Shown piece after piece: positions 1 to 26,558 of a stretch of DNA of 64,000 nt. How positions within the stretch are numbered: the stretch's first letter is position 1; each line of letters begins with the position of its first letter. The stretch spans positions 319,920,001 through 319,984,000 of the forward strand of contig OZ024742.1 in NCBI GenBank assembly GCA_964016885.1, written 5' to 3'. The position numbers and the translations under genes were made by a program. Origin of the DNA: Eledone cirrhosa. Its lineage: Eukaryota. The notes under the pieces were generated by a model. That model had not been told where the DNA came from. It did not search any database and saw nothing but the letters and a program-made list of their open reading frames with translations.

Positions 1-1296
1 GGTGTTCCCGTCTTCCCTCTATTTATCTTCCTCAACCTACAGGTTTATGCACAGAGAAAGCCCATTCACTCGGGCCATTTTCGGCACATTCACCCACCTT
101 TCAGCGAATTTACTGGGGTGTAGCACCTCTCTCTCCACTCTCACCTTCCTTCTGAAGTGGTACTTAAAGAAGGGGATGAGTTGTTGCCCGTAGAGAACGG
201 TGCTTGCCCTCAGTCCTTTTAACCTCGTCCACCATATTACCTCTTTCGCCATAGCCACCAGACAGAGGAAGACCGCCTCTCCTTCATGCTTAAATGAAGG
301 CGGTCTCCTCACGATGGACTCGGCTGACAACTGGATGCGTCCTACACGTTGACATAATTCCACAGGTCGGTCACCCCTGGGCACTGAACAATTGCGTGCA
401 GAACGGGTTCGATGTCCTGCTCGCATCTTGGACAGGAGCTTTTGGCAAGATCTCTGCCAGGGAGTCCGTGCCTGTATATTTTGTCTCGAAGTGGTACAGC
501 TCCTCTGCCAGGCCAGAGACCTCTGGAAGTTATCCATAGGCCCTGGATGAAAAGTCCTCCCGAACAGACTGGTCAGTTCGTCTTCTTCGATGCCTAGAGT
601 TTCCCCGAGAACGTCGTAGCACCCATCCTCCACTAATCCCCTATAGAATGTCGAAGTGGAGTCTCCGCTGATTGCCGTTTCCGCTTGGTAGATGGCTGTG
701 AGCGCCTGAAGGCACTCGAGGTGCCAGGAACCCATTTTCGGTCTTCGCTTGACCCAGGACTGCAGCTCTGTTAGTGAGACGAGTTGTGGAAGAGCTCGTC
801 TCACAAACGACAGCCACACCGGTTCGCCGGTCAGGAATACCTGGAGATGGCGTAGCCTCAGCGCGTGTTTGCGCATCATCAGCCACGGCATACCCAGCCC
901 TCCGTTAGAAGGGTATTGACAGAAGATGGATCTCCTCACCAATTGAGCCTGTTTCTTCCAGAGGAACTTGAAGAGTAGGCGTTCCATTTTGGTGAGGTAT
1001 TCGCGGAGACAAGGCACGACTGTCAAGCGGTAGTAGATGACGGACGCTATGTAAGTGTTCGCCACCTCCGCTCGACCTTTCAAGGAGAGTGTGCACTCAG
1101 TCCACTTCTGGGTGAGTGCAAACACCTTCGCCGTGACCTCGTTCCAGTTCTTGTCCACCTGGAGTTCTGGACCAAACCAGACCCCGAGCAATTTCATCAG
1201 TCCTTCCGTCCAGCGTCCAACGACACTGTCGGAAGGCATGGGTTTGCCTCTCCATGTGCCAAGTTGCAGTCCGACAGACTTGTTTGGGTTTAGTCT

Positions 1297-1297
<1 letters not shown>
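1..1297 (-). mobile_element. Tx1/L1-clade non-LTR retrotransposon copy 1, 5'-truncated ORF2 C-terminal part; 3' UTR runs off the window
   Basis: ORF 37..~1297 has KLLGVWFG, LSLKGRAEVAN and GGLGMP motifs homologous to copies 2-4. Homology stops where (GATA)n begins at 1298. Confidence 0.9.
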
Positions 1298-1330
<33 letters not shown>

Positions 1331-1340
1331 TATAGATAGA
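1298..1340. repeat. (GATA)n tract joining Tx1 copies 1 and 2
   Basis: Read directly. It is followed by TTTCTTTATT, which on the minus strand is the AATAAAGAAA 3' end of copy 2. Confidence 0.95.
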
Positions 1341-3868
1341 TTTCTTTATTTGCCACAAGGGCGCACAAGAAAAGGGGACGATACAAAGACATGCCGGGGA
1401 TTTTACATACAGTCGTGTAAAAATTATAAAACAAGCAATTATAACAATCGAAATCCCGAATAGGGGGGAAACGCCATAAATGGGTTGTTTAATACCCCGT
1501 CGATAGAACAACCCTCAACATCAGGAGCGTGTTGTGCAAGTGCTCCTGTCTTCCTTTTGCTCTCTTCTTTAACCTACAGGCTTATAAACAGAGAAGGCCC
1601 AATCACTCGGGCCATTTTCGCTTCATTCACCCACCTTTCAGTAAATTTACTGGGGTGCAGTGCCTCTCTCTCCACTCTGATTCTCCTTCTAAAGTGATAT
1701 TTAAAGAAGGGAATCAATTGTTGTCCGGAGAGAAAGGCATCTATCCTCAGTCCTCTCAATCTCATCCACCATATAATCTCTTTCACCATAGCCACTGTAC
1801 AGAGGAAAACCGCCTCTCTTTCGTTTTTGAAAGAGGCTGGCGCTTTGATCCTTACTATGGACTCGGAAGTCAACTGGATTTGTCCCATACGCGACAGCAG
1901 TTGTTCTGCATAGTTCCACAGGTCGGTTACACCCGGGCAGTGTACAATTGCGTGCAGGACGGTTTCAATGTCCTGCGCGCATCTTGGACACATCCTCTTA
2001 GAAGGATCCCTGCCAGAGCGTCCGTGCCTGTAGATCTTATCACGAACTGGTAGAGCTCCTCGGTAGCACTGCCAGGCCAGGGACCTCTGTAAGTTGTCCA
2101 TAGGTCCCGGGCGGAAAGTCCTACCAAACAGACAGGTGAGCTCATCGTCTTCGACGCCCAGAGTCTCTCCGAGCACGTCGTCGACCTTGTAACGTACAAT
2201 CCCTCTATAGAATGTCGAAGTGGAGTCTCCACTGATTGCTGTGCCCGCTTGCCAGAGGACTGTGAGCACCTGAGCGCGTTCAATGTGCCAGGCGACCATC
2301 GTTTTCGGTCTTTTCTTGACCCAGGACTGCTACTCCGTCAACGAGACGAGCTGTGGGAAAGCCTGTCTCACAAACGGTGCCCACACCGGTTGGGGGTCGT
2401 TGAGGAATACCTGGAGCTGCCGCAGCCTCAGCGCATGTTTGCGTATCATCAGCCACGGCATTCCCAGCCCTCCGTTGGAAGGGTGCTAACAGCAGACGGA
2501 TCTCCTCACCAGCGGAGTCCACTTCTTCCACAGAAACTGGAAGAGCATGCGTTCCATCTTGGCGAGGTGTTCACGGGGACAAAGCACGACAGTCAAGCGG
2601 TAGCAGATGACGGACGCTATGAAAGTGTTCGCCACCTCCGCTCGACCTTTCAAGGACAGTTTGTACTCTGCCCACTTCTGGGTGAGCGCAAACACCTTGG
2701 TTCCAGTTTTTCTCCACCTGGAGGTCTAGACCGAACCAGACCCTGAGCAATTTCACCGGTCCATCCGTCCAGCGTCCAACGACGCTGTCGGACGTCATCG
2801 GTTTGCCTCTCCACGTACCGAGTTGCAAATCGACAGACTTGTCCGGGTTAAGTGTTGCTCCCGTCAGCGTTTCGTATTCTTTCAGTAAGTTTCCGATCAC
2901 CCCGATTTTCAAGGTGCTCGACACCATTACGGTTATGTCGTCGGCATAAGCCGATGCCGCTTTGCGCAGTCCCGTTTCTAGGAGGATGCCCTCCAACAGC
3001 TCCAATTTCCGCAGTAGTGGCTCTAGAGTCAATACATACAGAATGGAGGAGAGAAGGCATCTCTGTCGAATGGAACGCGTGATTGCGAACGGCTCCGATA
3101 AGTAGCCGTTCACCTTGACCCTCGAGTAGCTGCTGGTGTGCATCGCCTCGATCCAGCCTCTGAAAACGGGACCGAAACCGGCGGCCTTGAGAACTGCTTC
3201 CAAGTATCGATGGTCGACCTATCGAATGCCTTAGACTGATCCAAATTGATCAGAACCCCACCGAGACCGGGTTTACTACCCACCCTCTCTATGATGTATC
3301 GCATGAGGTGGAGATTGTCGTGTATGGACCTGGTCGGGATTGCACACGTTTGCGCTTTCCCTACCAGGTTCTCGACGACAAGCGCTAACCTCGTCGCTAG
3401 CACCTTGGCCAAAATCTTTAACTCTATGTTGAGCAGAGTTATGGGCCTGAAGTTGTTAATTTCGTCCCCCCTTGTTCTCGTCTTTCCTGATCAGAGTTAC
3501 TACGCCCTAGCCTGCAGAACTGGGAATTCTCCCGTTCTGCTGCCAATTGCTGTAGACGGCTTCGAGGACGTCAGAGAACAAGTCCGGCATGCTTATGTAA
3601 AACTCATAGGGTAGACCATCTAGACCGGGTGACTTGCGTTTCCCGCAGCGGCCCAAAGCGTCCCGTATCTCAGTGTCCGTGATAGGTCTTTCGCAGAACT
3701 CGGCGTCCGTGTTCGAGAGACGCGGCAGGCCGTCGAGGTATGAACTAAAGTCCATTGCTCCGTTCGGCTCACCGTCGTTCTGCTCAAACAGTCGCGCAAA
3801 GTGCCGCTGAAAGGCCGCGCACATTTGCTTGGGGTCAAGTAGCACGCGTCCGTTTTGGTCTTTCAAAG
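1341..3868 (-). mobile_element. Tx1-clade LINE copy 2, 5'-truncated, frameshifted RT
   Basis: ORF pieces 3507..3866 (KSPGLDGLPYEFY), 3110..3412 (LDQSKAFDR), 2571..3203 (AYADD) and 1574..2299 (CPRC...ETVLHAIVHC). The 3' end is AATAAAGAAA+(TCTA)n and the 5' end abuts (GATA)n at 3871-3891. Confidence 0.92.
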
Positions 3869-3891
3869 ACAGATAGATAGATAGATAGATA

Positions 3892-6110
3892 TTTAGCAGT
3901 ATTAGTTATAGATGTTATCGCCACTTTAGCGGGGTGGTAGAATCAGTGGTCGTTAGTTGCCAGTGTGGTAAGTGATAGTATCCTCGTTGGATTATCTTGT
4001 TGACATAGACGTGAGGGAAGGTCCCTCGATCTATTTACCATCTATTTACAATATTCCTTTCGTCAGTATGGATTAAAGCAGCATGGATTAAAGATGTTAT
4101 TGAGACACGAGTAACATAATAACGACTTCAACCGCAGTAATTAGAGATGAAATGTTTGTTTATTTATATGGTTGAAGTTACAGATAAAAAGAGGTTACAA
4201 AAGGGAATGTGCCATTGCGCCGTTAAGCCGGCGAGGCTAGGGGTGCAATATCTCACTGCTACATTATGCGTGTTGCTGGCTCGAAGTTTCTGGTACAAGA
4301 GAGAGATTCTTCAAATCTTCGCGGTGAATTTCTTCCTCAGGGCGCGTAGGGATACATCCTCTTCTACTGGCGCTGATTGGCTGAACTGAGCCAAATCACG
4401 CACAGACAATGTATGTGAGCCCGCGGAATGTAGGTCACTACATCACCTCCGACCAGATTTTCAGCCGAAAATCGATAACGAAGAAACCAAGGACCCACAT
4501 ATTATTAAATCAGCAAGAACAAATGCTGAAAGAGCACATCAGTGAAAAAATAATTGAGCAGAAGGTTGCATGCAAGAACAAAGAATTAGGCGCTACGGGC
4601 CGTGTTGAGCCGCTGTGTCAAATGACCAGTTGTTTTGTTGTTTATACGTGACCGCCAAAGGTCTAACAAAAAACGGATAAAGTCTGACATGGGCGGAGTT
4701 GCTGTTCTTGCATTAAATGTTAATGGTAAGCGTTGTACCAGTAGCTGTGAACGAAGCTATTATGGTAGTTTACCAGTGCTGGCGAGAAAATGATGGCCCC
4801 CAGATGTATTGTCGAATGTGCTGTGGAGCCAGGAAAAAATGGCTGGTTGCTTTGTAAAGAACAAAAGGCAAGTTTAATCTGTAGGTGGGTTGCAGTGTAA
4901 ATTCCATAATTCGGGCGAATCCACAGAAGTGGCCGAAATGTTGACAAGTCCAGTTCAATTTGTTGCTTTCCCAGCGAGTCGGGCAAAAACAACAAGACGG
5001 ATGGCCGTCATGGACGATCAGTGTGCAACGAGATGCGAAGCCGTTTGAGTTCAGCTGCAATTAGTATTCTCGTGTTGCGGTGACTGTTTGAATCCAGTGG
5101 ATTAAGCTCTGTGAGCTGCTAGCATGTGACAGCATCTCAACCAGGTGAAAAGGGACTCGCAGAATATTACGTTTGAAGAACATATACCAAGAACAACATG
5201 TTGGTGTGTGATAAAAAAAAATGTGTGCATATGCAGGCATGTAAAACAGCAAAGAATGTGAATGAACAAAAACCATGAGCAAACAAATAGCAAAAGAGCA
5301 TAAAACAAGTAAATGCATTCTACAAAGAAATATGTGAATGTAACAAACTGATAATTCAAAGTCAATCTAGGGGAGCAGAGAAATTGCTCAATAAGTTCAA
5401 AGCTTTTCAAAGTCAAATTGTTCACACATCACCAGTGTACAGAAACTAGTTCTATCTGAAAACTGAAAAAGAAGTTTGTTAATGCCGTTAGGGGTTAGAT
5501 GTATGGTGTTTTTGTGAGATTTCGTGGCAATTTTCCCGTCCCGCCACACGAGAATACTTTAGCAGTATTAGTTATAGATGTTATCGCCACTTTAGCGGGG
5601 TGGTAGAATCAGTGGTCGTTAGTTGCCAGTGTGGTAAGTGATAGTATCCTCGTTGGATTATCTTGTTGACATAGACATGAGGGAAGGTCCCTCGATCTAT
5701 TTACCATCTATTTACAATATTCCTTTCGTCAGGTCGCCAATTCCAGCAGCATGGATTAAAGATGTTATTGAGACACGAGTAACATAATAACGACTTCAAC
5801 TGCAGTAATTAGAGATGAAATGTTTGTTTATTTATATGGTTGAAGTTACAGATAAAAAGAGGTTACAAAAGGGAATGTGCCATTGCGCCGTTAAGCCGGC
5901 GAGGCTAGGGGTGCAATATCTCACTGCTACATTATGCGTGTTGCTGGCTCAAAGTTTCTGGTACAAGAGAGAGATTCTTCAAATCTTCGCGGTGAATTTC
6001 TTCCTCAGGGCGCGTAGGGATACATCCTCTTCTACTGGCGCTGATTGGCTGAACTGAGCCAAATCACGCACAGAGAATGTATGTGAGCCCGAGGAATGTA
6101 GGTCACTACA
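3892..6110 (-). mobile_element. Non-autonomous LTR retroelement (TRIM/LARD-like), LTRs 3892-4442 and 5558-6110
   Basis: Two near-identical ~552-bp direct repeats with minus-strand termini TGTAGTG...ACTGCTAAA. GATA flanks both sides (3888-3891, 6111-6114). The ~1.1-kb interior has no gag/pol motifs. Confidence 0.9.
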
Positions 6111-6331
6111 GATATATTTCTTTATTTACCATAAAGGCATAAAAGGAAGGGTCAAATACAAAGGGGGAGTTTACATAAAACCGAGTAAAAAGGGTATAAA
6201 ATGAAAATAATCAAAAACAACCTCAAAAGGGAGTGGACGTGATGGGGGTTGCACACACCCCCGAAAAAGTGTGCAATCCTTTGCCCGGGGAGCATATGGA
6301 GAAGGTGCTCCCCCCTCCTTCACTTCTTTAC

Positions 6332-9300
6332 CTACAGGATGGTATACAGAGAAGGCCCATTTACACGAGCCATTCTCGCCACTATCACCCACCTTTCATA
6401 AAACTGCCCGTGGCCAAGCACCTCTCTCTCCATTCTTATCCTTCTTTCGAAGTGATATCGGAAGAAGTAGACCAGACTATCGCCAGAGAGGAAGTTTCCT
6501 GACCTCAGACCTTTCAATCGTGTCCACCAAACAACCTCTTTCAACATGGCTATTACGCACAGAAAAACCGCCTTTGCTTCCTTTGTGAAGAGGGGAGGCG
6601 GCTTGATTGTCATCACGGACTCGGCGGTCAATCGAATCGGCGCCACCCGCGACAGCAGTCGTTCGGCGTAGCCCCACAGATCAGTCACGCCCGGACATTG
6701 CACCAATGCGTGCGCAACGGTTTCTTCGTGACGCACGCATCTAGGGCAAATCTTTTTCGAGGCATCCCTGCCCGGGCGCCCGTGTCTGTAGAGCTTTTCT
6801 CGAACGGGTAGAGTCCCCCGGTAGCACTGCCAGGCCAGTGACTTCTGGAAGTTGTCCATTGGTCCCGGGCCGAAAGTCCTACCGAACAAGCTGGCCAGTT
6901 CGTCCTCTTCCATGTCCAGCGACTCTCCAAGGGTGTCATCGCCCCTGCTAGCCACCAGCCCTCTATAGAATGACGAGGTGGATTCTCCACCGATGGCCGG
7001 GTCCACTTGCCAGAGAGCTCTGAGCGCCTGGGTACACTCAGTGTGCCAGTCGCCCAGTTTTCCGGATCTTTGCTTGACCCAGGACTGCAGCTCGGTGAGC
7101 GAGACGTGTCTCGGAAAGGCTCGTCTCACGAACGGAGCCCACACCGGTTGACCAGTGAGGAATACCTGTAGGTGCCGTAGCCTTAATGTGTGCCTACGCA
7201 TCATCAACCACGGCATCCCCAGCCCTCCTTTCGAAGGTTGTTGGCAGCAGATGGATCTTCTCACCATAGGAGGGCGCTTTTTCCAAAGAAATTGAAAGAG
7301 CATGCGTTCCATGGTGGTGAGTGTTTCCTTAGGGCAAGGCACGACAGTCAGGCGGTAGTAGGTGACGGACGCTATGTAAATGTTCGCCACCTCCGCCCGA
7401 CCTTTCAGGGACAGCTTACACTTGGCCCATTTCTGGGTCAGTGCAAACACATTGCTCGTAACCTCGCCCCAGTTCTTTTCCACCTGGATGTCCGGTCCAA
7501 ACCAGACCCCAAGAAACTTCACCGGGCCCTCCGTCCAGTGTCCGACGACACCGTCGGGAGGCATCGGTCTGCCTCTCCACGCTCCGAGTTGCAGCCCGAT
7601 GGATTTTTCCCGGTTCAGTTTCGCTCCTGACAACGTTTCGTATTCCTCCAGTAAGGTGCCGATCGCCTCGATCTCCGAGTCGGTCGATACCATTACTGTT
7701 ACGTCATCGGTGTAGGCCGACACCGCTTTGCTCAATCCTGGTTCCAGGGGATACCCTGCAACAACTCCAACTTCCTCAGTAAAGGCTCGAGAGTCAATAC
7801 GTACAGAAGGGAGGAGAGAGGGCACCTCTGTCGAATGGATCGTGTGATTTCGAACGGCTTCAAAAGGTAGCCGTTCACCTTGATCCTAGAACAGATGTGG
7901 TTGCTATGTAAGGCAGTGATCCAGTCTCTGAAAACAGGACCGAACCCAGCCGCCGCTAGCACCGCATCCAGGTAACCATGGTCGACTCTATCGAACGTCT
8001 TAGACTGATCCAAGTTGATCAGGGCCCCACCGAAGCCGGGTTTGTTGCCAACCCTCTCTATGATGTATCGCATGAGGTGGAGGTTGTCGTGAATGGACCT
8101 GGATGGGATAGCACATGTCTGCGCATCTCCCACCAGGCCACCCACGACAAACGCCAACCTCTTTGCTAACACCTTGGCCAAAATCTTTAACTCTGTGTTT
8201 AGCAGGGTTATAGGCCGAAATTATTTATACTATCCCCCTTGTTCTCGTCCTTCCTCACCAGCGAGACTACGCTCTTGGCTACAGAACAAGGAATTCTCCC
8301 GTTCTGCTGCCAATTGCAGTAGACTGCTTCGAGGAGTTCGGAGAAGACCGGCATTGCTAAATAAAGTTCGTAAGGTATACCATCGAGACCTGGAGATTTG
8401 CGTCTGCTGCATTGGCTCAGCGCATCCCCGATCTCATCAGCCGAGATTGGTCCCTCGCAGGACTCTGCCTCTTCGCTCGAGAGACGTGGCAGGCCGTCGA
8501 GGTATGGACCGAAATCCATGTCGCCGCCCGGACCTTCGCCTCCCCCGAACAATCGGGCAAAGTGCCTTTGAAAGGCCTCGCACATCTGCTTTGGCTCCCG
8601 GATTACCCGTCCATCCTCATCTTGCAAAGACAGGATGGTGGATCGATTTCCACTCTTAGCTTCTGTCACGCGAGCCCAGCCAATGGCTTTGGCCCCCTCA
8701 TTACCTAGAGCACGTATTTTACTTCGAATGACGCAGCCTTCGTGCTTTGCATCGAAAAACTGGCTCAATGCCGTTCTTGATGCCAGCACTCTGGCCACAT
8801 CTTCGCTCTTGATTGCCTCTTCTAATTTACCTGTTAATTCTTTCTCGTTCCTATTCCTATCGGCAGCTAACATCTTGCTATAACTTATTGATTCTGTTCT
8901 AATCTCTCTTTTGAGAGATGCCCACCATCGGTTGTTGACGATTGCACCCGCCAACCTCTCCTTAACTAATCTGCTAATCTGGTCTCTGTAAGCCTCTTTT
9001 GCCGGTAAAGACAAATTAAGTTTCCAGTAACCGGGACCCTGTCTATGTGTTCTCTCGAGGTTGACTACGCAGGTCACTAATTTGTGATCTGTATAGCCAA
9101 CCGTGAGAATTTCTGGACAGCTTAATATATCCCTATCCTTACTTCTAACTAAGAATCTATCTAAGTACGATCTAGATTGACCACTGTGGTTCGTCAAAGT
9201 CCAGGTTGGCACAGTTGGAAAATCTAGTCGATATCTATCGACCAAGTTAAAACGGTCGAGTAACCCCTTGAGGCTGTTACACCCCCCTCTATTAGGACAT

Positions 9301-9764
9301 GCTCCTGCATAGTCCCAACGTGCATCTAGGATGTCATTCCAGTCCCCCGCTAGAAGCAGGGAACGCGACGTTCCCAGAAAAGTCTCCAGACGCTGGAAGA
9401 AATCGGGTCGTTCAGCTCCGAAAGGGGAGTAGACGGCGACCAGTCTCAAGGCCGCACCTCCACTACTGCCAACGTCTAGCACCAACAAACGACCTTCCGG
9501 GTCCGAGTGAACAACCTGTACGGCGAGACCCAGGTGTTTTTCCAGCAGTACGACAACCTCACCCCCACCTCCAGGTTGACAGAGAGATGCGTGCACCTCA
9601 ACGTCATCGAAGGTAGGGGCCAGCTGCCGCACAACGCTGATCCGAGTCTCACAGATAACCATTACATTTATACCACGTGACCTGAGGTCATTTAGAAGCT
9701 TTGCTTGCTTCCAAGTTGAGCCCAGGCCACGTGTATTCAAACATCCTACTCTTAACACATCCAT
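6332..9764 (-). pseudogene. Tx1 ORF2 (AP endonuclease + reverse transcriptase + C-terminal Cys motif), two frameshifts
   Basis: Endonuclease motifs CLNTRGL, GDWN, YLDRF, TDHK, GYWKLN; RT motifs SPGLDG, LDQSKTFDRV, AYTDD; C-terminal CPRC...H...C. Confidence 0.92.
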
Positions 9765-11689
9765 GTGGGCGGCAAAGCCAAAGGAGAGTGTAGAGACCTA
9801 CCTTTCTGCTTCCCGGGGTTCGGGTCGGACGACTTCCATGGGGTCGGAGATGTTGGGTGAAGGGGTGTCTTGTGGTGTGGTGGGGTTGGGGTGTTTGGAG
9901 TTCTGTTGGGGAGGGGAAGGGGAGGGGAAAAGCTTTTTAGGAGGACGCGGTTTATGGGTTTGACAGAGGGTGGTCCTACGTCCTCCTTAAAATCCTTTTT
10001 TAGTTTTTGGTAGAGGTTCATTGGGATCTTTATTAATTTAAAATGTGGGTAGTTTTCTGAAGAAGCAAAGCTTACCCCTTCGGTTTGTACCGAAGGGTTA
10101 TTGTTTATGAGTTCATTTAATTTATTATTGTTTCTGTTGATGTAAGTATAGTGTAATGTCTTTTTTTCGGATGGTGTGAGTGTTTCGAAGAGGAGAGGGG
10201 CAGGTTTGGTTTTGTTTGTTGCTGGAGGGGTGTTTTGTGTTTTGTTGGATTGTGTTGACATTTGGGTAGGGGCTGTTTGGCCTTGTGTGTTTTGCACATG
10301 TTTTCTTTTTTTCCTTTTAATCTGTCTGAAGGACTCCGTTTCTTCCCCCGAATTCGTTGGGTTATCTTCAGTGTTGGAGGGAAGAGGTATGTTTGCTGGT
10401 AGTGTTTCCGTGTTAGTTTTCTTTGTGGGGGAGATGGATGTCACTATGTTAGACTGTGTTGTGTGTTGTGGCTGCGGTGGTTGTGTTGTTTTATTGAGTG
10501 AGGGGTTGGGTGGGACTGTGTTTTGTTTTTGGGTAATGTGTTCTGTCTGTTTCTGCTGTGGTGGTGGTGTAGTTTTACTGAGGGACGGGTTGGGTGGGAC
10601 TGAGTTTTGTTGTTTGTTTATCTGTTGTGGTGGTGGTGGAGCTGGTGTTGGTAGCAGGGTTTTCTTCTTGTTGAGTTGGGGACAAGCCGCCTTCAGGTGC
10701 CCTCTGCCTGCACAGATATGACAGGACGGCCTTCTCCCCTCCACGCTAATGTTTATATACCCGTGGCCCTCTAATAGGGTTCTGTCGGGTATTTGGGCAA
10801 TGCGTTCAGGCTTCATTTGCACTACAACTTCTATACCTGTTCCACTGAACGCATTGCCTGTGGTTTTCCCAATGGAAATCCCGTTCTCATTCGCTGGATC
10901 GATCAAGCCAGCTATGAGCCAGCAGTAGTCCATATCTGGCATCATCGCATCCAGCCATATGCGCTGAGTTCTTTTACCCATATAAGATGGATAAAAGGTA
11001 AAATTTGTCGAACGAATCGGCGACAAAGCATATTTTTTTGCCGCCGATTCGTTGTTCATAATAATGGCTAGGCTTCCATAGAGCCTGTCTCTTCTTATGA
11101 AAGTGGCTTCATTAAGTACTTCTCTAAGTACCGCTTTAATTTCTGCTTGTGTTGGTTGTTGTGGTTTTTTTTAGATGCTGTTGATGGTGCGGAAAACGAC
11201 CGTCCGACTTTCAATATCTTTGGTGAGTTCCTGGGGCATTTTTACTGACAAGGCTCCATTTTCCCCTTGAGTTATGAATTGTTTGGCGTTTTTTATTCTT
11301 TGTGCCACAACTGAAATATTTTCAGGTATGTATGTTAAAGATTTTTTTGTTGTTTGTGCAAATGAGATGTTATTGGTGTTGACTTTGTCGTCTGTTTTGC
11401 TTTCTGTTATGATGTTGCTGTTTTCAAATGATATTTTTGTGTTTGTTGTTTCTTTGTTTGTGGTATTAATATTGTCATGCAATTCTTTCATATTTTTTTT
11501 GTTGTTGGAATCAATCTCCAGACCTGTGTCCTCGTCGACATTTTTCTCCGCACATTCAGCTGTTTTTCTTTTATTTTTTCTTTCCTTCTCTATGACGTTA
11601 GTTGGGAAGGAAGGGGCGACTAAAGCGTGCGAGCTTACAACTCTTACCGCTGTCCACCCACCACTATTTTCGTTAGCTTCGTTTAACAT
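9752..11689 (-). pseudogene. Tx1 ORF1 nucleic-acid-binding protein with CCHC zinc knuckle, frameshifted near 11100-11170
   Basis: CHICAGRGHLKAAC (CX2CX4HX4C) followed by a P/Q/T-rich tail. Homologous to copy 5 ORF1 (EGRRPSC, VKPxNRVLLK). Confidence 0.85.
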
Positions 11690-11970
11690 TTCTCCCAGAC
11701 GATTGAAATTTTATGCAACAAAATTTTATGCAACAAAATTTTATGCAACAAAATTGTTCACCCCTGGGAGGGGCGAAAATGAGCTGACCCACCGCCTGAC
11801 AGTTCAGACGGGGGGTCAAGCTACACAATAGTATCAAAATTAAAATTAAACTTACAAAATTTCCGCAATAAATTGGAACAAAACTTCTGCGCGAAGTGAA
11901 TTACGTCTACGCTATCGAACAGACGACAGCTAGATCAATAGATATATAGATAGATAGATAGATAGATATG

Positions 11971-14900
11971 TTTCTTTATTAGCCACAGGCGCACAAAAGA
12001 AGGGGACAAATACAAAGGGGGAAGTTTACATACAATAAAAACGTGTAAAATGTTATCACAAATGGAATTTAAAAAGTTAGTTGATTTTTCCCAATAGAGC
12101 GAGACAGTTTATATGGGTAACACATACCCCCGAAAAAATGTGCAACCCTTATCTCCAGGAGTACGAAGAGTTTGTACTCCTTTCCTCTCCTCCTCCTTTT
12201 CCTCAACCTACAGGCTGATATAGAGAGAAGGCCCATTCATTCGGGCCATTCTCGCCACTTCCACCCACCTTTCATAAAACTTGCTGGGGTACAGCACCTC
12301 TCTCTCCATCCTGATTTTTCTTCCAAAGTGGTATTTGAAAAAAAGAATCAGTTGTTGGCCGGAGAGAAAGGTGTCTGACCTCAGCCCTTTCAACCTTGTC
12401 CACCATACAACCTCTTACGCCATAGCTATCACACAAAGGAAAACCGCCTCTCCTTCGTTTTTGAAGGAGGGTGGCGGTTTGATCATGACAATGGACTCGG
12501 TGGTCAACCGGATTGGTCCCACCCGCGACAATAGTCGTTCTACATAGCCCCACAGGTCAGTGATACCCGGGCACTGTATGAATGCGTGCGCGACGGTTTC
12601 TTCGTCTCGCACGCACCTCGGACAGATCTTTTTTGCATGGTCCCTGCCCGGGCGCCCATGTCTGTAGAGCTTGTCTCGAACTGGTAGAGCTCCACGGTAG
12701 CACTGCCAGGCCAGGGACTTTGGGAAGTTGTCCATCGGTCCCGGGCGGAAGGTCCTACCGAACAGACTGGCCAGTTCATCTTCCTCTACGCCTAGAGTTT
12801 CACCTAGCGCGTCGTCGCACTTGCTGCGGATCAACCCTCTATAGAATGACGAAGTGGAGTCTCCACTGATCGCCGGGTCCGTCTGCCAGAGGGCTGTTAG
12901 CGCCTGAGCACATTCGATGTGCCAATCGCCCATTTTCCTCGGTCTTTGCTTGACCCAGGACTGCAGCTCGGTCAGCGAGACGAGTCGTGGGAAGGCTCGC
13001 CTCACGAACGGGGCCCACACCGGTTGTCCGGTGAGGAATACGTAGAGATGCCGCAGCCTGAGCGCGTGTTTGTGCATCGTCAACCACGGCATCCCCAGCC
13101 CTCCGTTAGAAGGGTGTTGGAAGCAGATGGATCTTCTCACCAAAGGAGCTTGCCTCTTCCAAAGGAATTGGAAGAGCGCGCGCTCCATTTTGGCGAGCGT
13201 TTTGGCTGGACAAGGCACGACGGTCAAGCGGTAGTAGATGGCGGACGCTATGAAAGTGTTCGCCACCTCCGCTCGACCTTTCAAGTATAGTTTGCACTCG
13301 GCCCACTTCTGGGTGAGTGCAAACACCTTGGCCGTCACTTCGTTCCAGTTCTTCTCCACCTGGAGGTCCGGACCAAACCAGACCCCGAGCAGCTTTACCG
13401 GCCCTTCCGTCCGACAACGCCATCGGAAGGCATCGGTTTGCCTCTCCACGATCCGAGTTGCAAACCGATGTACTTGTCCCGGTTCAGCTTCGCTCCTGTG
13501 AAACTTTCGTATTCCTTCAGTAAGGTGCCGACTTCCTCGATTTGCGAGGCGCTCGACACCATTACTGTCACGTCGTCGGCGTAGGCCGACGTCGCTTTCC
13601 GCAGTCCCGGTTCCAGAGGGATGCCCTGCAATAGCTCCAGCTTCCGCAGTAGTGGCTCGAGAGTCAGTACGTACAGAAGGGAGGAGAGAGGGCATCCCTG
13701 TCGAATGGATCGCGTAATATGGAACGGCTCCGAGAGGTAGCCGTTCACCTTGACATTTGAGCAGATGTTGCTGTTGTGCATTGCAGAATTCCAGCCCCTG
13801 AACACGGGTCCGAAGCCTGCCGCCTCGAGCACCGCATCCAGGTAACGATGGTCAACCCTATCGAAAGCCTTAGACTGATCCAAGTTGTTCAGGGCCCCAC
13901 CGAAGCCGTGTTTACACCCTACCCTCTCTATGATGTATCGCATGAGGTGGAGGTTGTCGTGTATGGACCTGGTCGGGATTGCGCATGTCTGCGCTTCTCC
14001 CACCAGGTTCTCGACGACAAGCGCCAGCCTCTTTGCCAACACCTTGGCCAAAATCTGTAACTCTGTGTTTAGCAGAGTTATGGGCCGGAAGTTGCTTATG
14101 TCATCCCCCTTATTCTCGTCCTTCCTGATTAGTGTGACCACGCCCCCGGTTACAGAACTGGGAATTCTCCCGTTCTGTTGCCAGTTGCAGTAGACCGCTT
14201 CCAGGAGACCGGAGAATAAGTCCGGCATTGCTACGTAAAATTTGTAGGGTAGACCGTCGAGACCTGGAGATTTGCGTTTGCCGCATTGGCTCAGCGCGTC
14301 CCCTATCTCAGTGGCTGAAATCGGCTTTTCGCAGAACTTTGCCTCGCTGTCCGAGAGTCGCGGTAGGCCGTCAAGGTATGGACCGAAATCCATAGCCTCT
14401 CCCGGCGCGCCGCCCCTCCTGAACAGTTGAGCAAATTGCCGCTGAAAAGCCGCACACATCTGCTTCGGCTCACGTATCACGCGTCCGTTTTGGTCCTTCA
14501 AAAACCGAATCGTGGACTTGTTGCCACTTTTTCCTCCGTCACTCGTGCCCAGCTAACAGCTTTGGCTCCCTCGTTTCCTAGAGCACGTATTTTGCTTCTG
14601 ACAACGCAGCCCTCGTGCTTTGCGTCGAAGAACTGGTCCAAGGCCGTTCTCGTTGCTAGCACGCTGGCTACGTTGCCACTTCTAATTGCCTCTTCTACTT
14701 TATCTACCAATTCCTTCTCGGTTCTATTTCTATCTAACGCTAATTCTTTCCTAAAAACTATCGAGTCTAATCTAACTGCCCTCTTGAGAGAGTACCACCA
14801 TCTGTTGTTGACAATGGCCCCCGTCAAGTGCTTTTTAACTAAAGTGCTAATCCGTCTACTGTAGGCTTTGCTTGTCGGTAACGACAAGTTCAGCTTCCAG

Positions 14901-15070
14901 TAGCCGGGTCCTTGTCTATGGGTTCTATCAAGGTTGGTCATGCAGGTCACTAGTTTGTGATCTGAATAGGCAACCATGAACATTTGTGGACAGCTTAACA
15001 TGTCCCTATCCTTATTTCTAACTAGAACCCTATCTAGGTACGATCTAGATGTTCCGCTACGATTACTCCA
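11971..15070 (-). mobile_element. Tx1-clade LINE copy 4, 5'-truncated inside the endonuclease domain
   Basis: ORFs 14498..~15070 (SYLDR, SDHK), 13395..14501 (RQGCPLS, YADD), 12415..13395 and 12208..12393. The 3' AATAAAGAAA is followed by a (TATC)n tract at 11931-11968. Confidence 0.92.
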
Positions 15071-16047
15071 ATCACGATAATGGCTGAGTGAGATGCCATT
15101 GTTATAACATAGGTAATCTGCCAAAAAATCGTCTCCGTTTGGAAAAATGTCTCCAACACAAGGGAAAAGGAAAACAAAATCGCTTGTTTTTCTCTGTCAA
15201 ACAACTGGACAGGAAAAAGAATGCATCCGAGACAACATGTAAAGGATAGACTAACCGAGCAATGTCATTAACAAGGTATAGGCAGGGAATTTAAAACTAA
15301 AACCAACACGGCGGACGATTTCGCGCCAAAAACACTATTGATTGAGAAGAAAGCCGCCATCTTGTCATCCTCAAAAATTTTAGCCAGAGAAAAGAAGAAA
15401 AGGAGAAAAAACATTCATACAATTGTTGTTTCCCTAGGAAACTAGCGGCAATATAATGTTATCTTTTTTTTTTTTTGTGTTTGTGTGTAAATAAATGGAA
15501 TGTTCGCTTTGCACATATGAGGAGTTTGATTGTTAAACGTTACAGATAAAGATGCTGAAATCAGTAAAATACAGCCAGATCAGAATGAAGCGTGTTGTTC
15601 TGTATTAAATGTTTTTTTCTTGCATTTTTTTTCCCATTCTTTTTTTTTTTTAAATGTCGGGGTCACCAATTTAGAATGTTAGTTTCAGTGTATATATATT
15701 ATTAAGAATGACAATAAATGCAGATGAGTGTTGTGACATGGTTTTACTTCACAGAAGTCAAATAAATTAATAGAAATAATTTTTACCACATGTTGATGGT
15801 CAGTTGGTCACAACTCCCAGACCGGAGTGTGTAGAGAAGAACAGAAATCTTCTCTTGGTAAGGTTCAAGTGTTTCTTTAGGCTGCCGGCGCAGTAAGTGA
15901 GAGTTGCTGCCTTAATGTCCTCAAATATATAGTCCCCAGGGGGACGCAACTCCATTTAGTACATGGATCTGCCACTGGGAGTCGCGACCGTCACAAAGGG
16001 ACGCAACTCCTATACGTGCTGAGTTACAGCCGTAAGGGGCCGCTACA
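15071..16047 (-). mobile_element. LTR retrotransposon remnant: 5' LTR (15670-16047), tRNA-Trp PBS (15656-15668) and leader
   Basis: The minus strand reads TGTAGCG...TTCTAAA, then T, then TGGTGACCCCGAC, complementary to the tRNA-Trp 3' end. The termini are of the same type as the other two LTR elements. Confidence 0.72.
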
Positions 16048-16213
16048 CACTAAATAAAATTAGTCTGTTAGTTGGGATTTAAAAAAACCCCTCTGAATGG
16101 AAAAAAGGATGAGTATTGAGTACTACCTAATTTTCAAATTGGTTAGCTGTTTCTAAACAAAGCCTGCTTTGTTTCTCCCTATTTATATACATATATATGT
16201 GTATATATATATG

Positions 16214-16272
<59 letters not shown>

Positions 16273-16882
16273 AAAAGTTATGAAATGAAAGGAGCTGTAT
16301 GGTTACTAAAAACAAGGTTTAGGATGGTGGTTAGGACGGAACAGGAGGAGAAAGGAAGAAAGGAGTTTCCATCGTCAGCTGTAAATGTTTCCCGAACCGA
16401 TGTTTCGGCACTCAATTACAGGACATCGGTGTAGTTCGGGTGCGCACAAGGCCTTTTATTAATCAAAAGGTCAGGTGGAAAAGGAGAGAGAAAAGGAAAG
16501 AGAGGGAAAGGAGGAAGAACAGGGGGGGGGGAGATGAGGAGAGAGGAAGAAGGGGAAAAATAGGAAAGGAATAGAAGAAAAAAAAGTGTACAGATCCCAT
16601 CGTGGGAAGACACAGGTAAAAGTAACATGCAAAAAAGTAACCGTGGAAAAATAGGGAAAGTAAGTTGTGGCCAACCTGGGAGACTTTAGCCTGGTGGTCA
16701 GCTACAACTCAGAGCTGGTATAATCGTGCTGCCTCTCACATAGACAGGAGAAAGTGAGAGAGACACGGGCAACCAAAAGTGAGGAGGTGAAGGGAAAGGG
16801 AGATAATCCAGAAGGGATTACGACGGTGGTAAAAACATGCCGCAAAGATTGCGGACAGAGAGGTCATCAATATATATATATA

Positions 16883-17437
16883 CAGGGTGCCGACGATATG
16901 TGTTCGCAAGATTACTGTCTAGGAAAAAGTAACACAGTAGTTTTTTTAAGATATATTTATCAAACTTGGGTCAGTTTGTCTTCATGACTTGTTCTTTCGA
17001 TCTTATTCGATAAACCCGCCATTAGCTTTGATGACGGCCTCAAGGCGGCCTCGGAACCAGCTGCAGGCCTTAGTCACTGTTTCCCGACTTAGGCCCCTAA
17101 AGGCACTTGTGATCCTGGCCTTCAGATTGCCTTTCGTATTGCAGCTAGATCTGTTGGTGTCTCGTTCCACTGCGCCCCACACAAAGAAGTTGAGGGGGTT
17201 GCAGTCAGGCGAGCTGGGAGGCCAGATGTCAGGTGAAGTGTGGTTGACGAACTTCTCTGACAGCCAGGCTTGATTCTTTCGGCTGGTATGGCAGGGCGCT
17301 GAGTCTTGCTGCCACATGTACGGCCTACCTGCAGCTACCTGGTCGATCCAAGGCTTTACTACCTCGCTCAGAACGTGGATGTAGCCATTGGTGTTCAGCT
17401 TGAGGCCCTCAGGGAAGAAGTGAGGTGGCATGACGTC
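16883..17437 (-). mobile_element. Truncated Tc1/mariner (maT-type) transposon: one TIR plus transposase C-terminus
   Basis: TA-CAGGGTG TIR; ORF 17003..17431 with QQDSAPCH and WPPSSPDCNPLN; nearly identical to 28143-28680. Confidence 0.9.
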
Positions 17438-17632
17438 TTGTGCTCACAGTCGCTTCACGCCATGAAGCCGGGATAAGCACCGGCCAAATGAGCCTTCTGG
17501 CTTAAGACAGACTTTAGACTTATGGCCTTCCTGCCGAGCCAGTGGGATGGCGTCATCGTATGGCTAAAACAGCAACGTGCTGTGACCAGCTGCGCCGAAT
17601 GGCGCCCGACAGACTGGTCGGTCAAGGTGATA

Positions 17633-17687
<55 letters not shown>

Positions 17688-17859
17688 TATATATAATATG
17701 AAGTATTTCCGTAGGAAAGGTAAAGGAAAAGAGAGTGCTCTATGTAGGCTACAGAGCTTTTTAGTTATGTAATAAACAACATAAGATAATTCATTTATCA
17801 GTGGTTTCTTGAAGAGAGCCCAGGCTGAAAATGCCCAAGAAATGCTGTATGTCAATACA

Positions 17860-18172
17860 CCGCCCCTATGACTCTATCAGGAGTTACGGGGCCATACCAT
17901 ATGTCACCTTGATCTTGACCACCTTGACCGACCAGTCTGTCTGGCGTCCATTTGGCGCCGCTGGTCACAGCACGTCGTGCTGTTTTAGCCATAAGATAAC
18001 GCCATCCCACTGGCTGGGTGGGCAGGCCGGTACTCATTTCTACAGCTGAGTAAACTGGAGCAACGTGAAATAAAGTGTCTTGCTCAAGGAAACAACACAT
18101 CACCCGGTCTGAGAATTGAACTCACAACCTTTCGATTGCAAGCCCAATGCTCTAACCACAAAACCATGCACC
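17860..18172 (-). mobile_element. tRNA-derived SINE; a partial inverted copy lies at ~17520-17630
   Basis: Minus-strand A-box-like TGGTTAGAGC and B-box GTTCAATTC, followed by a CCTTGAGCAAGACACTT core. Confidence 0.7.
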
Positions 18173-19351
18173 TTCACCCGGGAGTCGGGTTACAATACCA
18201 TATGTATGGATGGATATATATATATATGGATATGTAGTAAGACGCCTCACGCTCCTTGATAGAACAACGCCAGTTGAGAACGCCAGAAAGAAAAGACAGA
18301 CATCCACTGGAAAGCCGACTGATCACACGCCAGAAACCAGCCTCTGTACAACACCATTGTTTGTGCTACATCAAAAAATAAACGTATATTTCATCTCTAA
18401 TTTCTGCTGTTGAAATAATTATTATGTCACTCGTATCTCGATAACATCTATAATCAATACTGCTAAAGTAGTGACCGACGTAAGAATTTAACGCAGCCCT
18501 TCTTTTTCATTCAGTTGAACTTTTATTGTCACATTGCCGGCCTTTTTTCGCAACTTGCGAAAATAAAAAATATTCCTTTTAAAATTATTGAAAAGTTAGT
18601 AGTATTTCAAAAACTTTTTGCTACACTTGACAACAACAACGACAGCAGCAGCAGCGACAACATTGTTTAACCACTGACCAAAAGAGGGAATAGTGAGTGG
18701 CAGCTTCATAGCCTTACCGACGCAAACCACCACACATCGGAAATATCAAAACGATTCATTCGTGTCGATAATTTAGAGCAACTTTTTTTTATGCACTTGC
18801 ATATTCCATTTCCGTTGCCAACTTTTTCGCAACTTACAGAAGAAAAAAGAAAAAAGAGTATTTTTCCAAGGTGGCGTTGCGTTCCTTCCCAGTTTTGTAA
18901 CGGACACATTTTTTGAATTGCGTGTGTGTTCCATGACTGATCAAGAGAGAAGAGACTAAACTTTTTTTTGTGAACATAACTGCCCCGCATGGGGATATAC
19001 ATGCCTTACCTTTTTCTAAGGGATTTTTAGCCACTGGCTACCTTTGTTGATATCCAACGCGGATATATTTTTAAAAAAAACAAACATTTTTTTCCTCCTC
19101 TTTTTTTTTACCTTATTTGATTTGGCTGGTTCGTTGAAGCAACGCGAGGGGACAGACGTTGAAGGAAAATTTTTTTTTAAAAGATATATATCTGTATTTT
19201 ATGTATTTTTCATATTTCCTTACGTTTTGGAATGTCTGTTTCTTTTTGCCCTTTAACTTTTTCTCAATATTGGCTGTTCTCTTTTCACTGTACAAGGGTA
19301 CATTAGTTGCTGTTTAGATATATATGTATATATTTTTTTATAAAAGTTAAC

Positions 19352-20113
19352 ATGAATGTGCCACATTTGCCCGCCTTTACTGGAAAACCTAAGATGTGGT
19401 TTGCCCAGTTACAGGCGTATTTTACGGTCTGTAAGACCGAATCTGACCAGCGCCTCGCTGTACTGATTAGCGGCCTTCCCCCTAATCTAGCAGATTCGGT
19501 CCAAGACCTAATTACAGAGCCCCCCTCTGACTTGACGTATGAGATTTTGAGGAGGAATTGTAAGTCGGTAGAGAGTCGTTTTCGGTCATTGATCGAGGAC
19601 GAACGATTAGGTGACAGGACTCCTACCGCTTTTCTCCGGCATTTGCGGGATTTGAGCGATTCCCAAGATCAGGATAGCCCTTTCCTGAAGCAATTGTTCT
19701 TCTCTCGCCTACCTCAAGAGGTACAGGCGATCCTAGCCCATATGCTAGAGGTAAATACCCTGGATCACATTGCTGTCTCTGCTGACAAAATTGTAGAGGT
19801 GACGAAGAGAGACACTTCGAAGCCAAAGTTCGTTGCTTCCTCTTCTCTTCCTCAATCACGCTCATCAGCGTCTGATGACATATTAATCACCGCTATGGAA
19901 GCCATGACTCGTCAAATGGCGGAGTTGTGCAAGGAATTCACGTCCTTTGGACGGCAGAGGAGCCGCTCACGACGTTATTCAACTTCTCGCCACCGTAGCC
20001 CTTCCAACACACCAGGAACACCATATTGTTATTACCATGAAAGATATGGTAAAAAAGCCGCCCGTTGTAGGCCTCCTTGTGCTTACGAGGGAAAAGACGA
20101 CCAGAGTCACTAA
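19352..20113 (+). CDS. gag: Gag polyprotein with CHCC (CX2HX9CX3C) motif
   Basis: [29 protein letters not shown] and [18 protein letters not shown]; first ATG at 19352. Confidence 0.88.
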
Positions 20114-23100
20114 CGGCGGATAGTGCGCTCTGCGAAACAACATCTAACCGCCACTTTTTCATTGAGGACCTGCTGTCAGGTAGAGCTTTTCTGGTTGACA
20201 CAGGTGCAGCTTGTTCCGTATGGCCTGTGTGTTATATGAAGGAGACTCCCCCTGAGACGCCTATTGAGTTGCAGGCAGTAAATTGTTCGCCGATTCGAAC
20301 TTTCGGACAAATCTCGTTACCTTTGCAGTTTCGTAATCTGCGGCGCGAGTTTAAATGGATATTTACTGTCGCTGCCTTGCCGTATCCGATTCTAGGCGCG
20401 GATTTTCTTCACCATTTTTCATTGACGGTGGACCTTCGTGGTAACCGCCTAATTGATGGCATCACGGGATTAACTGTTGTTGGCAAGGCAGCAGGAGTTC
20501 CAACGGTTAGCCCGACATTTTTTCTTGCTAACACCGGTGATCCTTTCCATGCGTTGTTGAACTCGTTCCCGCAACTGACTCGGGGAAATTTTCGATTTGA
20601 TGAACCAACTCATACCACGGAGCACTTCATATCTACAACTGGTGCTCCCGTTTTCTCTCGTCCTCGTCGCTTGCCTCCGGACAAACTCAAAGCAGCACGA
20701 TCAGAGTTTGATCATATGCTGCAAATGGGGATTATTCGTCCGTCCACGAGCCCGTGGGCGTCCCCATTACACATGGTACCGAAAGCGAATGGCGATTGGA
20801 GACCTACTGGAGATTATCGACGCCTGAATTCGATAACGGTACCGGACCGTTATCCTATCCCTCATCTGCAAGACTTTGCGTCTTCGTTGCAGGGATGCAA
20901 GATATTCTCCAAACTGGATTTAATTCGTGCGTACCATCAAATTCCTGTCCATAAAAATGACATTCCAAAAACGGCTATAGTTACGCCATTTGGGTCGTTC
21001 GAGTTTTTGACTATGCCGTTCGGATTAAGGAATGCCGCTAGTACTTTTCAGCGGTTTATGGATGAGGTTACTCGCGGCCTCGATTTCGTCTATACCTATA
21101 TTGACGACCTGCTCATTGCTAGTTCTTCTCCAGAGCAGCATACGCACCATTTGAATCTTCTTTTCCGCCGATTGAAGGCGTATAACGTGCAGCTTAATGC
21201 ACCCAAATGTGTTTTTGGTGCTGAGTCACTGACTTTCTTGGGTCACGTCATCGATGTTGACGGTATTCGGCCCCGGCCTGAGCGAGTTAAGGTCATAGAG
21301 GATTTGCCTCCACCGACCTCACTACGTCAGTTACGCCAGTTCTTAGGTCTGGTTAACTTTTATAGGCGTTTCGTGCCAAATTGTGCAAAATTGCTTTTCT
21401 CCCTGACAGAAATTTTGAAAAATTGTCGGAGGAAGAACAAAGATATTTCTTTGACAGACACTCAACTTGCTGATTTTCAGCACGCCAAAACTGTTTTGGC
21501 TAATGCTTCGTTACTGACTCACCCGGTACCCGGTGCAAAGCTAACGCTTTGTGTTGATGCATCGGATATCGCTGTGGGCGCAGTACTACAGCAAAACATC
21601 AATGGTTACCAGCAACCGCTGGAGTTTTTTTCCAAAAAGCTAAATCCTGCTGAGACGCGCTACAGCACCTTTGGAAGAGAGCTTTTAGCCATCTATTTGG
21701 CCGCGAAACATTTTTCACATGTGCTAGAGGGTAGACAATTTACTATCCTCACTGACCATAAACCATTGACTTTTGCTTTGAGAGCGAAGGCTGATAAATA
21801 CTCGCCCAGAGAGACGAGGCACCTTGATTTCATCTCGCAATATACGAGTGATATCCAGCACATTCCGGGTTCACTAAATACAGCGGCCGATGCTTTGTCC
21901 CGCTTACCCGTGACAGCGATCTCGTCATCCTCTGACATAGATCTGACTCGTTTGGCTGCGGATCAGCCTCCCCTTGAGTCATTGGATGTCACATCGCCCG
22001 AGTTTGCGAATTGCGAGATGAAATACTTGCCTCTGTCGACTGCAGTTGGCCAAATTCTCTGCGACGTCTCTTTGGACGTGCCTAGGCCCTTCGTTCCAGA
22101 GAATCATCGTCGGACCGTGTTTCTGGGATTACATTGTATCTCGCATCCAGGATCTTCTGCCACAGCAAAGCTCATATCAGCTAGATTTTTCTGGCCAAAT
22201 ATGAGGCGTGAAATTGCTGCTTGGTGCCGTTCCTGCGTCGCTTGCCAGAGATCAAAGGTCCATCGACACGTCAAGGCTCCCCTGGGTACCTTTGCTAACC
22301 CAGATGCGCGTTTTTCACATATTCATATTGACATAGTGGGACCTTGGCCTGTCAGCGATGGTTTTTCTTATCTACTTACCGTCATTGACCGTTTTTCGAG
22401 ATGGCCTGAGGCCATCCCCTTGAAAAACATCACCGCGGAGACAACAGCACGTGCTCTTGTGTCTGGATGGATCTCTCGTTATGGAGTTCCATCCACAATA
22501 ACTACCGACCGTGGACGACAGTTCGAGTCGAGCCTTTTCCTCGAGCTGTCAAAATTAATTGGTGCTAAACGCATTAGAACTACGGCATACCATCCCGCTT
22601 CGAATGGTATGGTGGAGCGTTTTCACCGCCAACTGAAGGCCTCCTTAATGGCCTCAATGGACTCGGCGCATTGGAGCGAGTACCTCCCTATTGTGCTACT
22701 AGGGATTCGGTCAACGGTGAAGGTCGACTTTGGATTTTCACCGGCCGAAGTACTGTATGGTGCCCCTCTGACGTTGCCCGGGCAAATGCTTGCCCCTATC
22801 GATCTTGATGCCCAAGATCACGCTTCCTACGTGTCCCGTTTGCGCTCCTATTTCCAGGATTTGCCGCCAATGGACACTAGGAAACAAACTGTCAAGACTG
22901 CTGTCCCGAGGGATATTGCCTCGTGGACGCATGTCTTTGTAAGGAATGATACGGTGAAGCCCCCGCTCACACAGCCTTACACTGGACCTTACCGTGTCTT
23001 AGCGCGCTCGGCTAAGCATTTCACGTTAGATATTAAGGGGTCCAGGGAGACAGTTACATTAGACAGGCTTAAGCAGGCGCACCTTGACACGGACGCTGTG

Positions 23101-23271
23101 GTTCCTGATCCACGAACCCCTTCGTATTTGCCTGTTGAGCGAACGACTGTTCCTGAACCACCATCATCGCCTGTCCCTACACCACCACCATCGCCACGTT
23201 ACAAGAACACGACCCGTTCAAGTCGTAGGGTCCACTGGCCCAAAAAATTTTGCAGCACCGTCTATATTTAG
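20077..23271 (+). CDS. pol: Pol polyprotein (protease-RT-RNase H-integrase), probably expressed by -1 frameshift
   Basis: LVDTGA protease, [17 protein letters not shown]...TDH RNase H, HHCC and DDE integrase. The frame is -1 relative to gag, with G GGA AAA at 20089-20095. Confidence 0.95.
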
Positions 23272-24110: not shown

Positions 24111-24159
24111 ACGTCTTCTGATGAGGGTCCGATAAGATCTGAAAATTGATTAAAGATGT
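24111..24159 (+). ncRNA. Minimal type I hammerhead ribozyme
   Basis: acgtctt-CTGATGA-gggtc(cgataa)gatct-GAAA-attgat-TA-aagatgt: intact core, with stems I and II pairing (some G-U). Confidence 0.8.
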
Positions 24160-24287
24160 TTATAATTTTTTCAATTTACAGGGAAATTCGTATTTTTTGG
24201 CATGTTTACATGCCTGCATATTAGATATGTATATATATTTATACACGGTGCAGTCTTGGTTTCAACTCCTACCAACACTACTGCTGG

Positions 24288-24374
<87 letters not shown>

Positions 24375-24441
24375 TAGCTGGTCCGTCCGGCTGGCGCTCG
24401 GCTACCATTGACGTGTTCTACAGCATCCATATATATATATA

Positions 24442-26457: not shown

Positions 26458-26520
26458 ACATGGAAGGAAATTGGGGAGGAGCAACAATTAGTTGGCAATA
26501 ATTACAGTGATGAATTTGAA

Positions 26521-26558
<38 letters not shown>

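Follow-up and report, generated by a model that had tools for sequence, protein, structure and literature searches.

The stretch of the Eledone cirrhosa genome analysed here (64,000 nt, hereafter the window; contig OZ024742.1, positions 319,920,001 to 319,984,000) contains a chain of four long interspersed nuclear elements (LINEs) of the L1/Tx1 group, all on the - strand and joined by (GATA)n, which extends to position 34530. Copies are numbered 1-4 from left to right and coordinates are window positions. Copy 1 (<1-1296) is a 5'-truncated LINE comprising the 3' part of open reading frame 2 (ORF2); its 3' end lies outside the window, ~206 bases to the left. A (GATA)n tract at 1297..1338 joins the 5' junction of copy 1 to the 3' end of copy 2 (1339..3870), which is likewise 5'-truncated, has a frameshifted ORF2 and terminates in AATAAAGAAATC. 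At the 5' junction of copy 2, (GATA)5 (3871..3891) is the rest of a tract common to copy 3; next come a 2.2-kb element of long terminal repeat (LTR) type within the linking tract (3892..6110, - strand, with a 4-bp TATC duplication) and a lone GATA (6111..6114) remaining at the 3' end of copy 3. Copy 3 (6115..11935) is a full-length LINE of 5.8 kb with an ORF1 and an ORF2 made up of an apurinic/apyrimidinic-type endonuclease (APE), a reverse transcriptase (RT) and a zinc finger, both frames carrying frameshifts or stops. Its 5' end is joined by (GATA)n (11938..11968) to the 3' end of copy 4, whose 3' half (11969..15070) holds ORF2 from ~residue 195, the 3' untranslated region (UTR) and the terminus AATAAAGAAACA.

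The rest of copy 4 lies beyond an interrupting block at 15071..31719. The segment at 31720..34447 (- strand; 5' UTR, ORF1 and the start of the endonuclease) had been taken for an independent insertion, ‘copy 5’, in the original prediction, which was made from the letters of the window. The halves on either side of the block match bases 337-3087 (95.2%) and 3098-6197 (96.3%) of the full-length copy L341, and the corresponding parts of L342 are 97.2% and 96.5% identical to them. ‘Copy 5’ is thus the 5' half of copy 4, the two being contiguous halves of one element parted by 16.6 kb. The block is largely an inverted copy (92-98%) of an 8-kb stretch ~0.94 Mb away (C3:318.984-318.992 Mb), with later insertions that include a Gypsy element; ~10 LINE bases were lost where the inverted duplicate sits inside copy 4, and the duplicate begins with a ~980-bp repeat that adjoins Gypsy pol at other loci. 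A (GATA)~22 tract (34444..34530) heads the chain.

With copy 4 rejoined to its 5' half, all four chain elements have their 5' end in (GATA)n, and the only four perfect (GATA)3+ tracts in the window all lie at LINE junctions. Copies 1-3 had been proposed to have their 5' ends in the tract of the next copy. For copies 1 and 3 the 5' junction does lie inside the next copy's 3' tract; copy 2 is separated from it by the 2.2-kb element. This element has direct repeats of 553 bp (3892-4442 and 5558-6110, 97.6% alike), TG..AA ends, a purine tract ahead of the second repeat and TATC on each side, and we read it as an LTR element that probably split the tract shared by copies 3 and 2. The three 3' ends in the window consist of AATAAAGAAA(T/C)(A/C) followed by TATC, and copy 1 has the same kind of ending, bearing out the proposal of a fixed sequence followed by a TATC-type repeat. 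The four are also divergent copies in one orientation, as had been noticed: the others share 73-79% nucleotide identity with copy 3.

An intact relative of copy 3 (L061, 92.6% identical to it) encodes ORF1 in a 638-codon frame and an ORF2 of 1145 aa. ORF2 contains the Pfam domains PF03372 (endonuclease), PF00078 (RT) and PF13966 (zinc finger), the last slightly below the cut-off in one ORF2 (P0005) and above it in another (P0131). Among solved structures its best matches are L1 ORF2p (E 2e-50), with R2 at only 2e-20. The endonuclease residues N10, E39, D141, N143 and H227 are invariant in our alignment and D202 and D226 nearly so, and the catalytic residues line up with those of human L1 ORF2p. 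ORF1 had no match in a Pfam search; it carries one CCHC knuckle (CHICAGRGHLKAAC, at residue 324 of P0006), and its Atlas neighbours with zf-CCHC (score 0.91) are a lead only. The copies thus combine an N-terminal APE, an RT and a C-terminal zinc finger closest to L1 ORF2p with 5' truncation, a fixed 3' end and target-site duplications, an organization that fits the L1/Tx1 group of non-LTR retrotransposons. Members of the Tx1 clade typically have an ORF1 with an RNA-binding region and a CCHC zinc knuckle, and no poly(A) tail. The elements described here likewise have the knuckle, and no poly(A) tail was present at the 3' ends of the copies examined, so the Tx1 label itself appears apt by analogy with this architecture. 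Just one close homologue carries a name, that from Argonauta hians (61%), and homologues in the 31-row RT tree described below are unnamed except for one fungal protein named ‘Transposon TX1’. Relatives at 80 metagenome loci are distant (22-44% identity); a TATC tract accompanies none of the 80 and a simple repeat eight.

The association with TATC, the complement of GATA, holds across the genome. The exact 24-base 3' end has 1557 genome matches, and 1343 of these (86%) run into TATCT after one further base (N+TATCT). A tail of the element could account for TATC at the 3' side alone, and we therefore examined 5' junctions, scoring a 5' flank as positive when it had at least two TATC within 40 bases upstream. 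By this measure 1.44% of 79,584 background 40-nt windows, drawn from twenty 10-kb stretches, are positive. For the copy 3 subfamily we took the 40 best 3'-end matches, 39 of them outside the window, and removed the duplicates L073 and L090. The resulting 37 copies, picked by their 3' end, have a TATC 5' flank in 30 cases (18/21 full-length, 12/16 truncated). The same is true of 23/24 copies in the subfamily of copy 4 (and its ‘copy 5’ half) and of 39/40 in a young subfamily, where the 3' flank also begins with TATC in 39/40. Overall, 81-98% of 5' flanks across the three subfamilies carry the microsatellite. GATA in the reversed orientation was found upstream of 0/37, 0/24 and 0/40 copies, respectively. 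The predicted fixed orientation relative to GATA therefore stands, and the genome-wide 5' junctions, which the original prediction had named as its refutation test, and 3' flanks both turned out as it anticipated.

The young subfamily allows the target to be read directly. An endonuclease search returned at least 150 copies with 99-100% identical endonucleases, most of them in a 1156-aa open frame; for our sample we set the query copy aside and took the leading 40, which are 98.8-99.7% identical to L061. Twenty-one of these have a measurable target-site duplication, 17 sit in pure repeat and two have no exact duplication. The measurable duplications, all from the TATC family, are 15-24 bp long, plus one of 35 in degenerate repeat (median 19 bp, n=21). 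Aligning the targets gives TAT at +1..+3 in 21/21, C at -1 in 20/21 and T at -4 in 21/21, so that the insertion target is ..TATC|TATCTAT... One explanation to be set against targeting is that the element brings a (TATC)n tail of its own and shows no target preference, with the GATA at 5' ends being the tails of its neighbours. It would explain why TATC follows every 3' end in the window, and in 13/40 young copies the 3' end of another element does lie no more than 300 bases upstream. The other 27 do not, yet TATC is upstream in 39/40. Decisive are copies at non-repeat sites (L085, L089, L093, L097 and L098), which have clean 15-24-bp duplications and no added TATC tail. Because their 3' flank is simply the duplicated target, the 3' TATC derives from the target and is not a templated tail, and the target is renewed by the duplication. 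This refutes the idea of an own tail (as at L085 and L093), to which we attach next to no probability, and it places the target regeneration proposed earlier in the ~19-bp duplication. At the other end, full-length young copies (L151-L190) start with (A)ATCTAGCTG plus 0-4 extra bases, sometimes G, possibly copied from the RNA cap.

A related family in the window has a different target. A ~157-base 3' stub at 44242..44399 (- strand), 98.7% identical to a full-length copy, terminates in the same AATAAAGAAATC as the TATC family, but (ATT)22 (44177..44241) comes next. The 28-base 3' end of this sister family has 3603 exact genome matches; a DNA similarity search with the 156-base stub returned none, unlike the exact pattern. 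ATTATT follows in 20 of the first 25 3' ends, against a background of 0.08%, and all ten full-length 5' junctions examined come after (ATT)n, seven of these being from arrays chosen for spacing; TTC-type flanks were seen at only 2/23 ends. The sister family also forms chains, linked by (ATT)n, and its copies (L271-L295) often lie in (ATT)n tracts preceding other repeats, including a tRNA-like SINE head. The 166 distinct 3' ends of the fetched loci include eight clusters with TATC-type flanks and three with ATT-type ones. Intact ORF2 copies are present in both lineages and are 66.6% identical overall (endonuclease 60%, RT 74%), and the hairpin loops of the two endonucleases differ (NHSGQSR vs NRIGSSR). 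Elements of the Dong/R4 type have a C-terminal restriction-like endonuclease and are not known to carry an APE domain. In the ATT-associated ORF2 an APE domain lies at the N terminus (PF03372, E 5e-14), which rules out Dong/R4 for the sister family.

Since two lineages with the same 3' terminus use different repeats, target specificity has likely switched within the lineage. In the RT tree the TATC copies group together (99/99); a second ATT-associated element, L330, joins them as sister (91/98), and the main ATT family branches outside both. The switch was thus probably from ATT to TATC; with moderate tree support, (ATT)n targeting may be ancestral. The direction depends on one branch (91/98) and on rows of broken copies with inflated branches. 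Evidence against repeat-directed insertion of the sister family is that its copy L332 shows no duplication and that the truncated copies L329 and L335 have no ATT at the 5' junction.

Together, the target, orientation and duplications make it likely, in our judgement, that (TATC)n/(GATA)n is the insertion site of an L1/Tx1-group lineage whose copies land in one orientation and duplicate ~19 bp of target, probably because its APE endonuclease nicks the GATA strand and starts reverse transcription there. The anatomy, the fixed terminus, the target sequence, the orientation and the duplication length are direct observations; from established target-primed reverse transcription we infer the steps that would connect them. 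First, the endonuclease would nick the strand bearing GATA; the TpA step (GAT^AGATA) is the most likely position. Because TAT occupies +1..+3 in every measurable target, the exact nick position is not fixed and the cut could fall elsewhere within TAT. A cut at TpA (AAT^AAT in the sister) would unite both lineages with the L1 site TTTT/AA, and is our preferred reading. The freed 3'-OH would then prime cDNA synthesis on the 3' end of the RNA, and the second strand would be cut ~19 bases on, duplicating 4-5 repeat units and leaving a usable target on both sides. Later elements, often of other subfamilies, would insert into the renewed tracts and so build same-orientation chains, and a minority of array units may come from tandem duplication.

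Base pairing could instead be the main source of targeting, if the UAUC end of a read-through RNA annealed to GATA 3' ends that came from nicks already present or from an endonuclease of loose specificity. In favour of this, poly(A) is absent and TATC always adjoins the elements, bases used for pairing would be invisible in the finished insertion, and the ATT sister could switch target merely by read-through into a different tract. The specificity of the L1 endonuclease has also been found to lean on DNA structure over base contacts (Repanas 2007, PMC1950540). The bases on the nick side, which are unable to pair with the RNA, are however conserved too (T at -4 in 21/21, C at -1 in 20/21), though they belong to the same tract. 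Pairing also sits poorly with a duplication length held tightly around 19 bp and with endonucleases that differ between the lineages at 40% of residues, hairpin loop included, against 26% for the RT. We regard pairing as the main determinant as improbable, and prefer endonuclease choice, to which RNA-primer pairing may add.

Several observations weigh against targeting of (TATC)n/(GATA)n as the rule. N+TATCT is absent after 214 of the 1557 exact 3' ends, and 7/37 older copies of the copy 3 subfamily have fewer than two upstream TATC. By eye, ~7/19 called 5' junctions of truncated copies in the copy 4 subfamily also have no TATC; these junctions were called from the best alignment block, so that part of them could reflect internal deletions. 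Sites of TA-rich or TATA type also occur (L065, L093, L180), and the 17 young insertions in pure repeat and the two without an exact duplication add nothing to the measured target. The support as a whole is from DNA sequence, with nicking deduced from it.

Chains could in principle also come from tandem duplication, from unequal exchange involving GATA tracts or from passive build-up where repeats are dense. The 150 young matches include 12 same-strand neighbour pairs (counted by eye) no more than 12 kb apart, where 0.09 are expected. When ten neighbouring young pairs were compared, seven differed by 15-45 bases and three by 1-5; dispersed young pairs (n=60) have a median difference of 18.5 bases and a 5th percentile of ~7. 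The three near-identical pairs fall below that percentile and speak against independent insertion, identical 5' junction letters recur within several arrays, and duplicated loci are present (L003/L004, L073/L074, L089/L090). The remaining seven diverge like dispersed pairs, and chains therefore likely grow mostly through independent insertion, with some tandem duplication. The window copies, only 73-79% alike, come from dispersed subfamilies with members 95-97% identical elsewhere in the genome, and at L169 the duplication's 3' copy runs straight into the 5' end of a second element, an apparent insertion next to one already present. Passive accumulation would leave the fixed phase, the fixed orientation and the duplications unexplained. 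Duplication is thus refuted as the main cause of the chains, a role we consider very unlikely for it or for passive accumulation, and may make a minor contribution. The earlier claim of independent insertions, not tandem duplication, is sound for the window copies and too broad for the young neighbour pairs, three of which may be duplications.

In the young arrays L359-L368, neighbours that differ at 15-19 bases have identical 5' junction letters. The junctions at C1_388 and C4_285 fit insertion 19-21 bases upstream of the older copy's start, and that at C7_58 would need a longer duplication or recombination. Up to 13 kb to the left of the window, L100 and L343 hold further members of this LINE lineage in a local cluster. 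These occur on either strand, always with TATC oriented to match the copy, and some contain inversions.

Microsatellite targets are familiar among LINEs. Kibi, in (TC)n, and Koshi, in (TTC)n, are Tx1-clade elements of teleost fish, and crocodilian Tx1 families target (TTCC)n/(TTTC)n (PMC4494074). Like the elements described here, they are APE-type LINEs of the L1/Tx1 group with a microsatellite target, and related families use different repeat units. Target specificity was called there when the microsatellite occurred in >20% of flanks (PMC4494074), a level far exceeded by the 81-98% found here. Our targets, (TATC)n and (ATT)n, differ in not being pyrimidine-only like (TC)n, (TTC)n, (TTCC)n or (TTTC)n, the host here is Eledone cirrhosa, and we liken the families by target habit, not by tree placement. 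The endonuclease of Xenopus Tx1L (Tx1L-EN) nicks its target, Tx1D, almost exclusively (PMC1950540), a sequence-specific APE endonuclease of the kind proposed here, and tandem insertions of crocodilian SINEU-3 sandwich a target duplication (PMC4494074), so that Tx1-Mar/SINEU-3 follows the same chain-building logic as the GATA-linked chains. The targets of both Tx1L and Tx1-Mar/SINEU-3 are DNA transposons, not microsatellites.

Other LINEs also insert into microsatellites. Waldo and Mino belong to the R1 clade, and Dong, of the R4 clade, uses a restriction-like endonuclease. Our elements have their APE domain at the N terminus, and L1 ORF2p is the solved structure that they resemble most. A review lists Waldo for (ACAY)n, Mino for (AC)n and Dong for (TAA)n, the same repeat class as the sister's (ATT)n; GATA is absent from the list in the part of the review used here, which gives ACAY, AC, TC, TTC and TAA (PMC3812793). 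With human L1, whose endonuclease site is 5'-TTTT/AA (PMC1950540), the likeness extends to an ORF2 alignment over residues 8-855 (E 2e-50), to target-primed insertion with 15-20-bp duplications and, if the nick is at TpA, to the cut itself. The elements here differ from L1 in having no poly(A), a CCHC knuckle in ORF1 and strong repeat-specific targeting.

A repeat annotation of Octopus vulgaris reports 13 recently active L1-Tx1 families (PMC13282606); the words GATA and target are absent from its main text, and GATA and TATC from the one supplement examined. The literature searched, mostly at listing or abstract level, contained no GATA-targeting LINE, and as far as it reaches GATA is added to the known LINE targets. 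It is conceivable, if rather unlikely, that this specificity is already catalogued in Repbase, in the 2004 Kojima paper or in figure 3 of PMC4494074. The mechanism itself is not new; the new part is the target, within known site-specific retrotransposons. A broader reading, which we hold tentatively and a little short of an even chance, is that these are two still-active sisters of an undescribed octopod LINE lineage, independent of the fish Kibi and Koshi, that would share one RNA 3' end and have endonucleases diverged to (ATT)n, the ancestral target, and (GATA)n, the derived one.

Target-renewing insertion accounts for the GATA-linked LINE chains; on the broader reading just given, the family would also rank among the chief builders of GATA-tract and LINE arrays here. 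The choice of microsatellite by APE-type LINEs has been described as not well understood (PMC3812793). Two lineages this close (ORF2 67%, endonuclease 60%, RT 74%), each with an intact ORF2 and a different repeat, permit a direct test by domain or loop swap, and the pair would, on the broader reading, map how an APE endonuclease changes target. Users of GATA or ATT microsatellites as markers in this genome should note that these often adjoin a repeat.

The window contains further elements outside the chain. The Gypsy-type LTR element within the block (18233-23732) has 236-bp LTRs that are 98% alike, a gag-like frame, and a pol with RT, RNase H and integrase. It terminates in TG..AA, is flanked by a 4-bp GATA duplication and has an LTR similar to that of the 3892-6110 element, which is also in a TATC/GATA 4-mer. 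A Tc1/mariner-like transposase remnant lies at 28084-29440 (weak HTH_Tnp_Tc3_2 match), with a partial second copy, 93% alike, at 16876-17437. A different LINE at 44485-47427 (- strand) has a 980-codon open frame with an RT and C-terminal C2H2-like zinc fingers, and is RTE-like by our reading. Finally, a 41-bp satellite of ~274 copies fills 52798-64000 and gives long spurious ORFs; a CadC_C1 Pfam match at 53422-57786 was dismissed, as it falls in this satellite.

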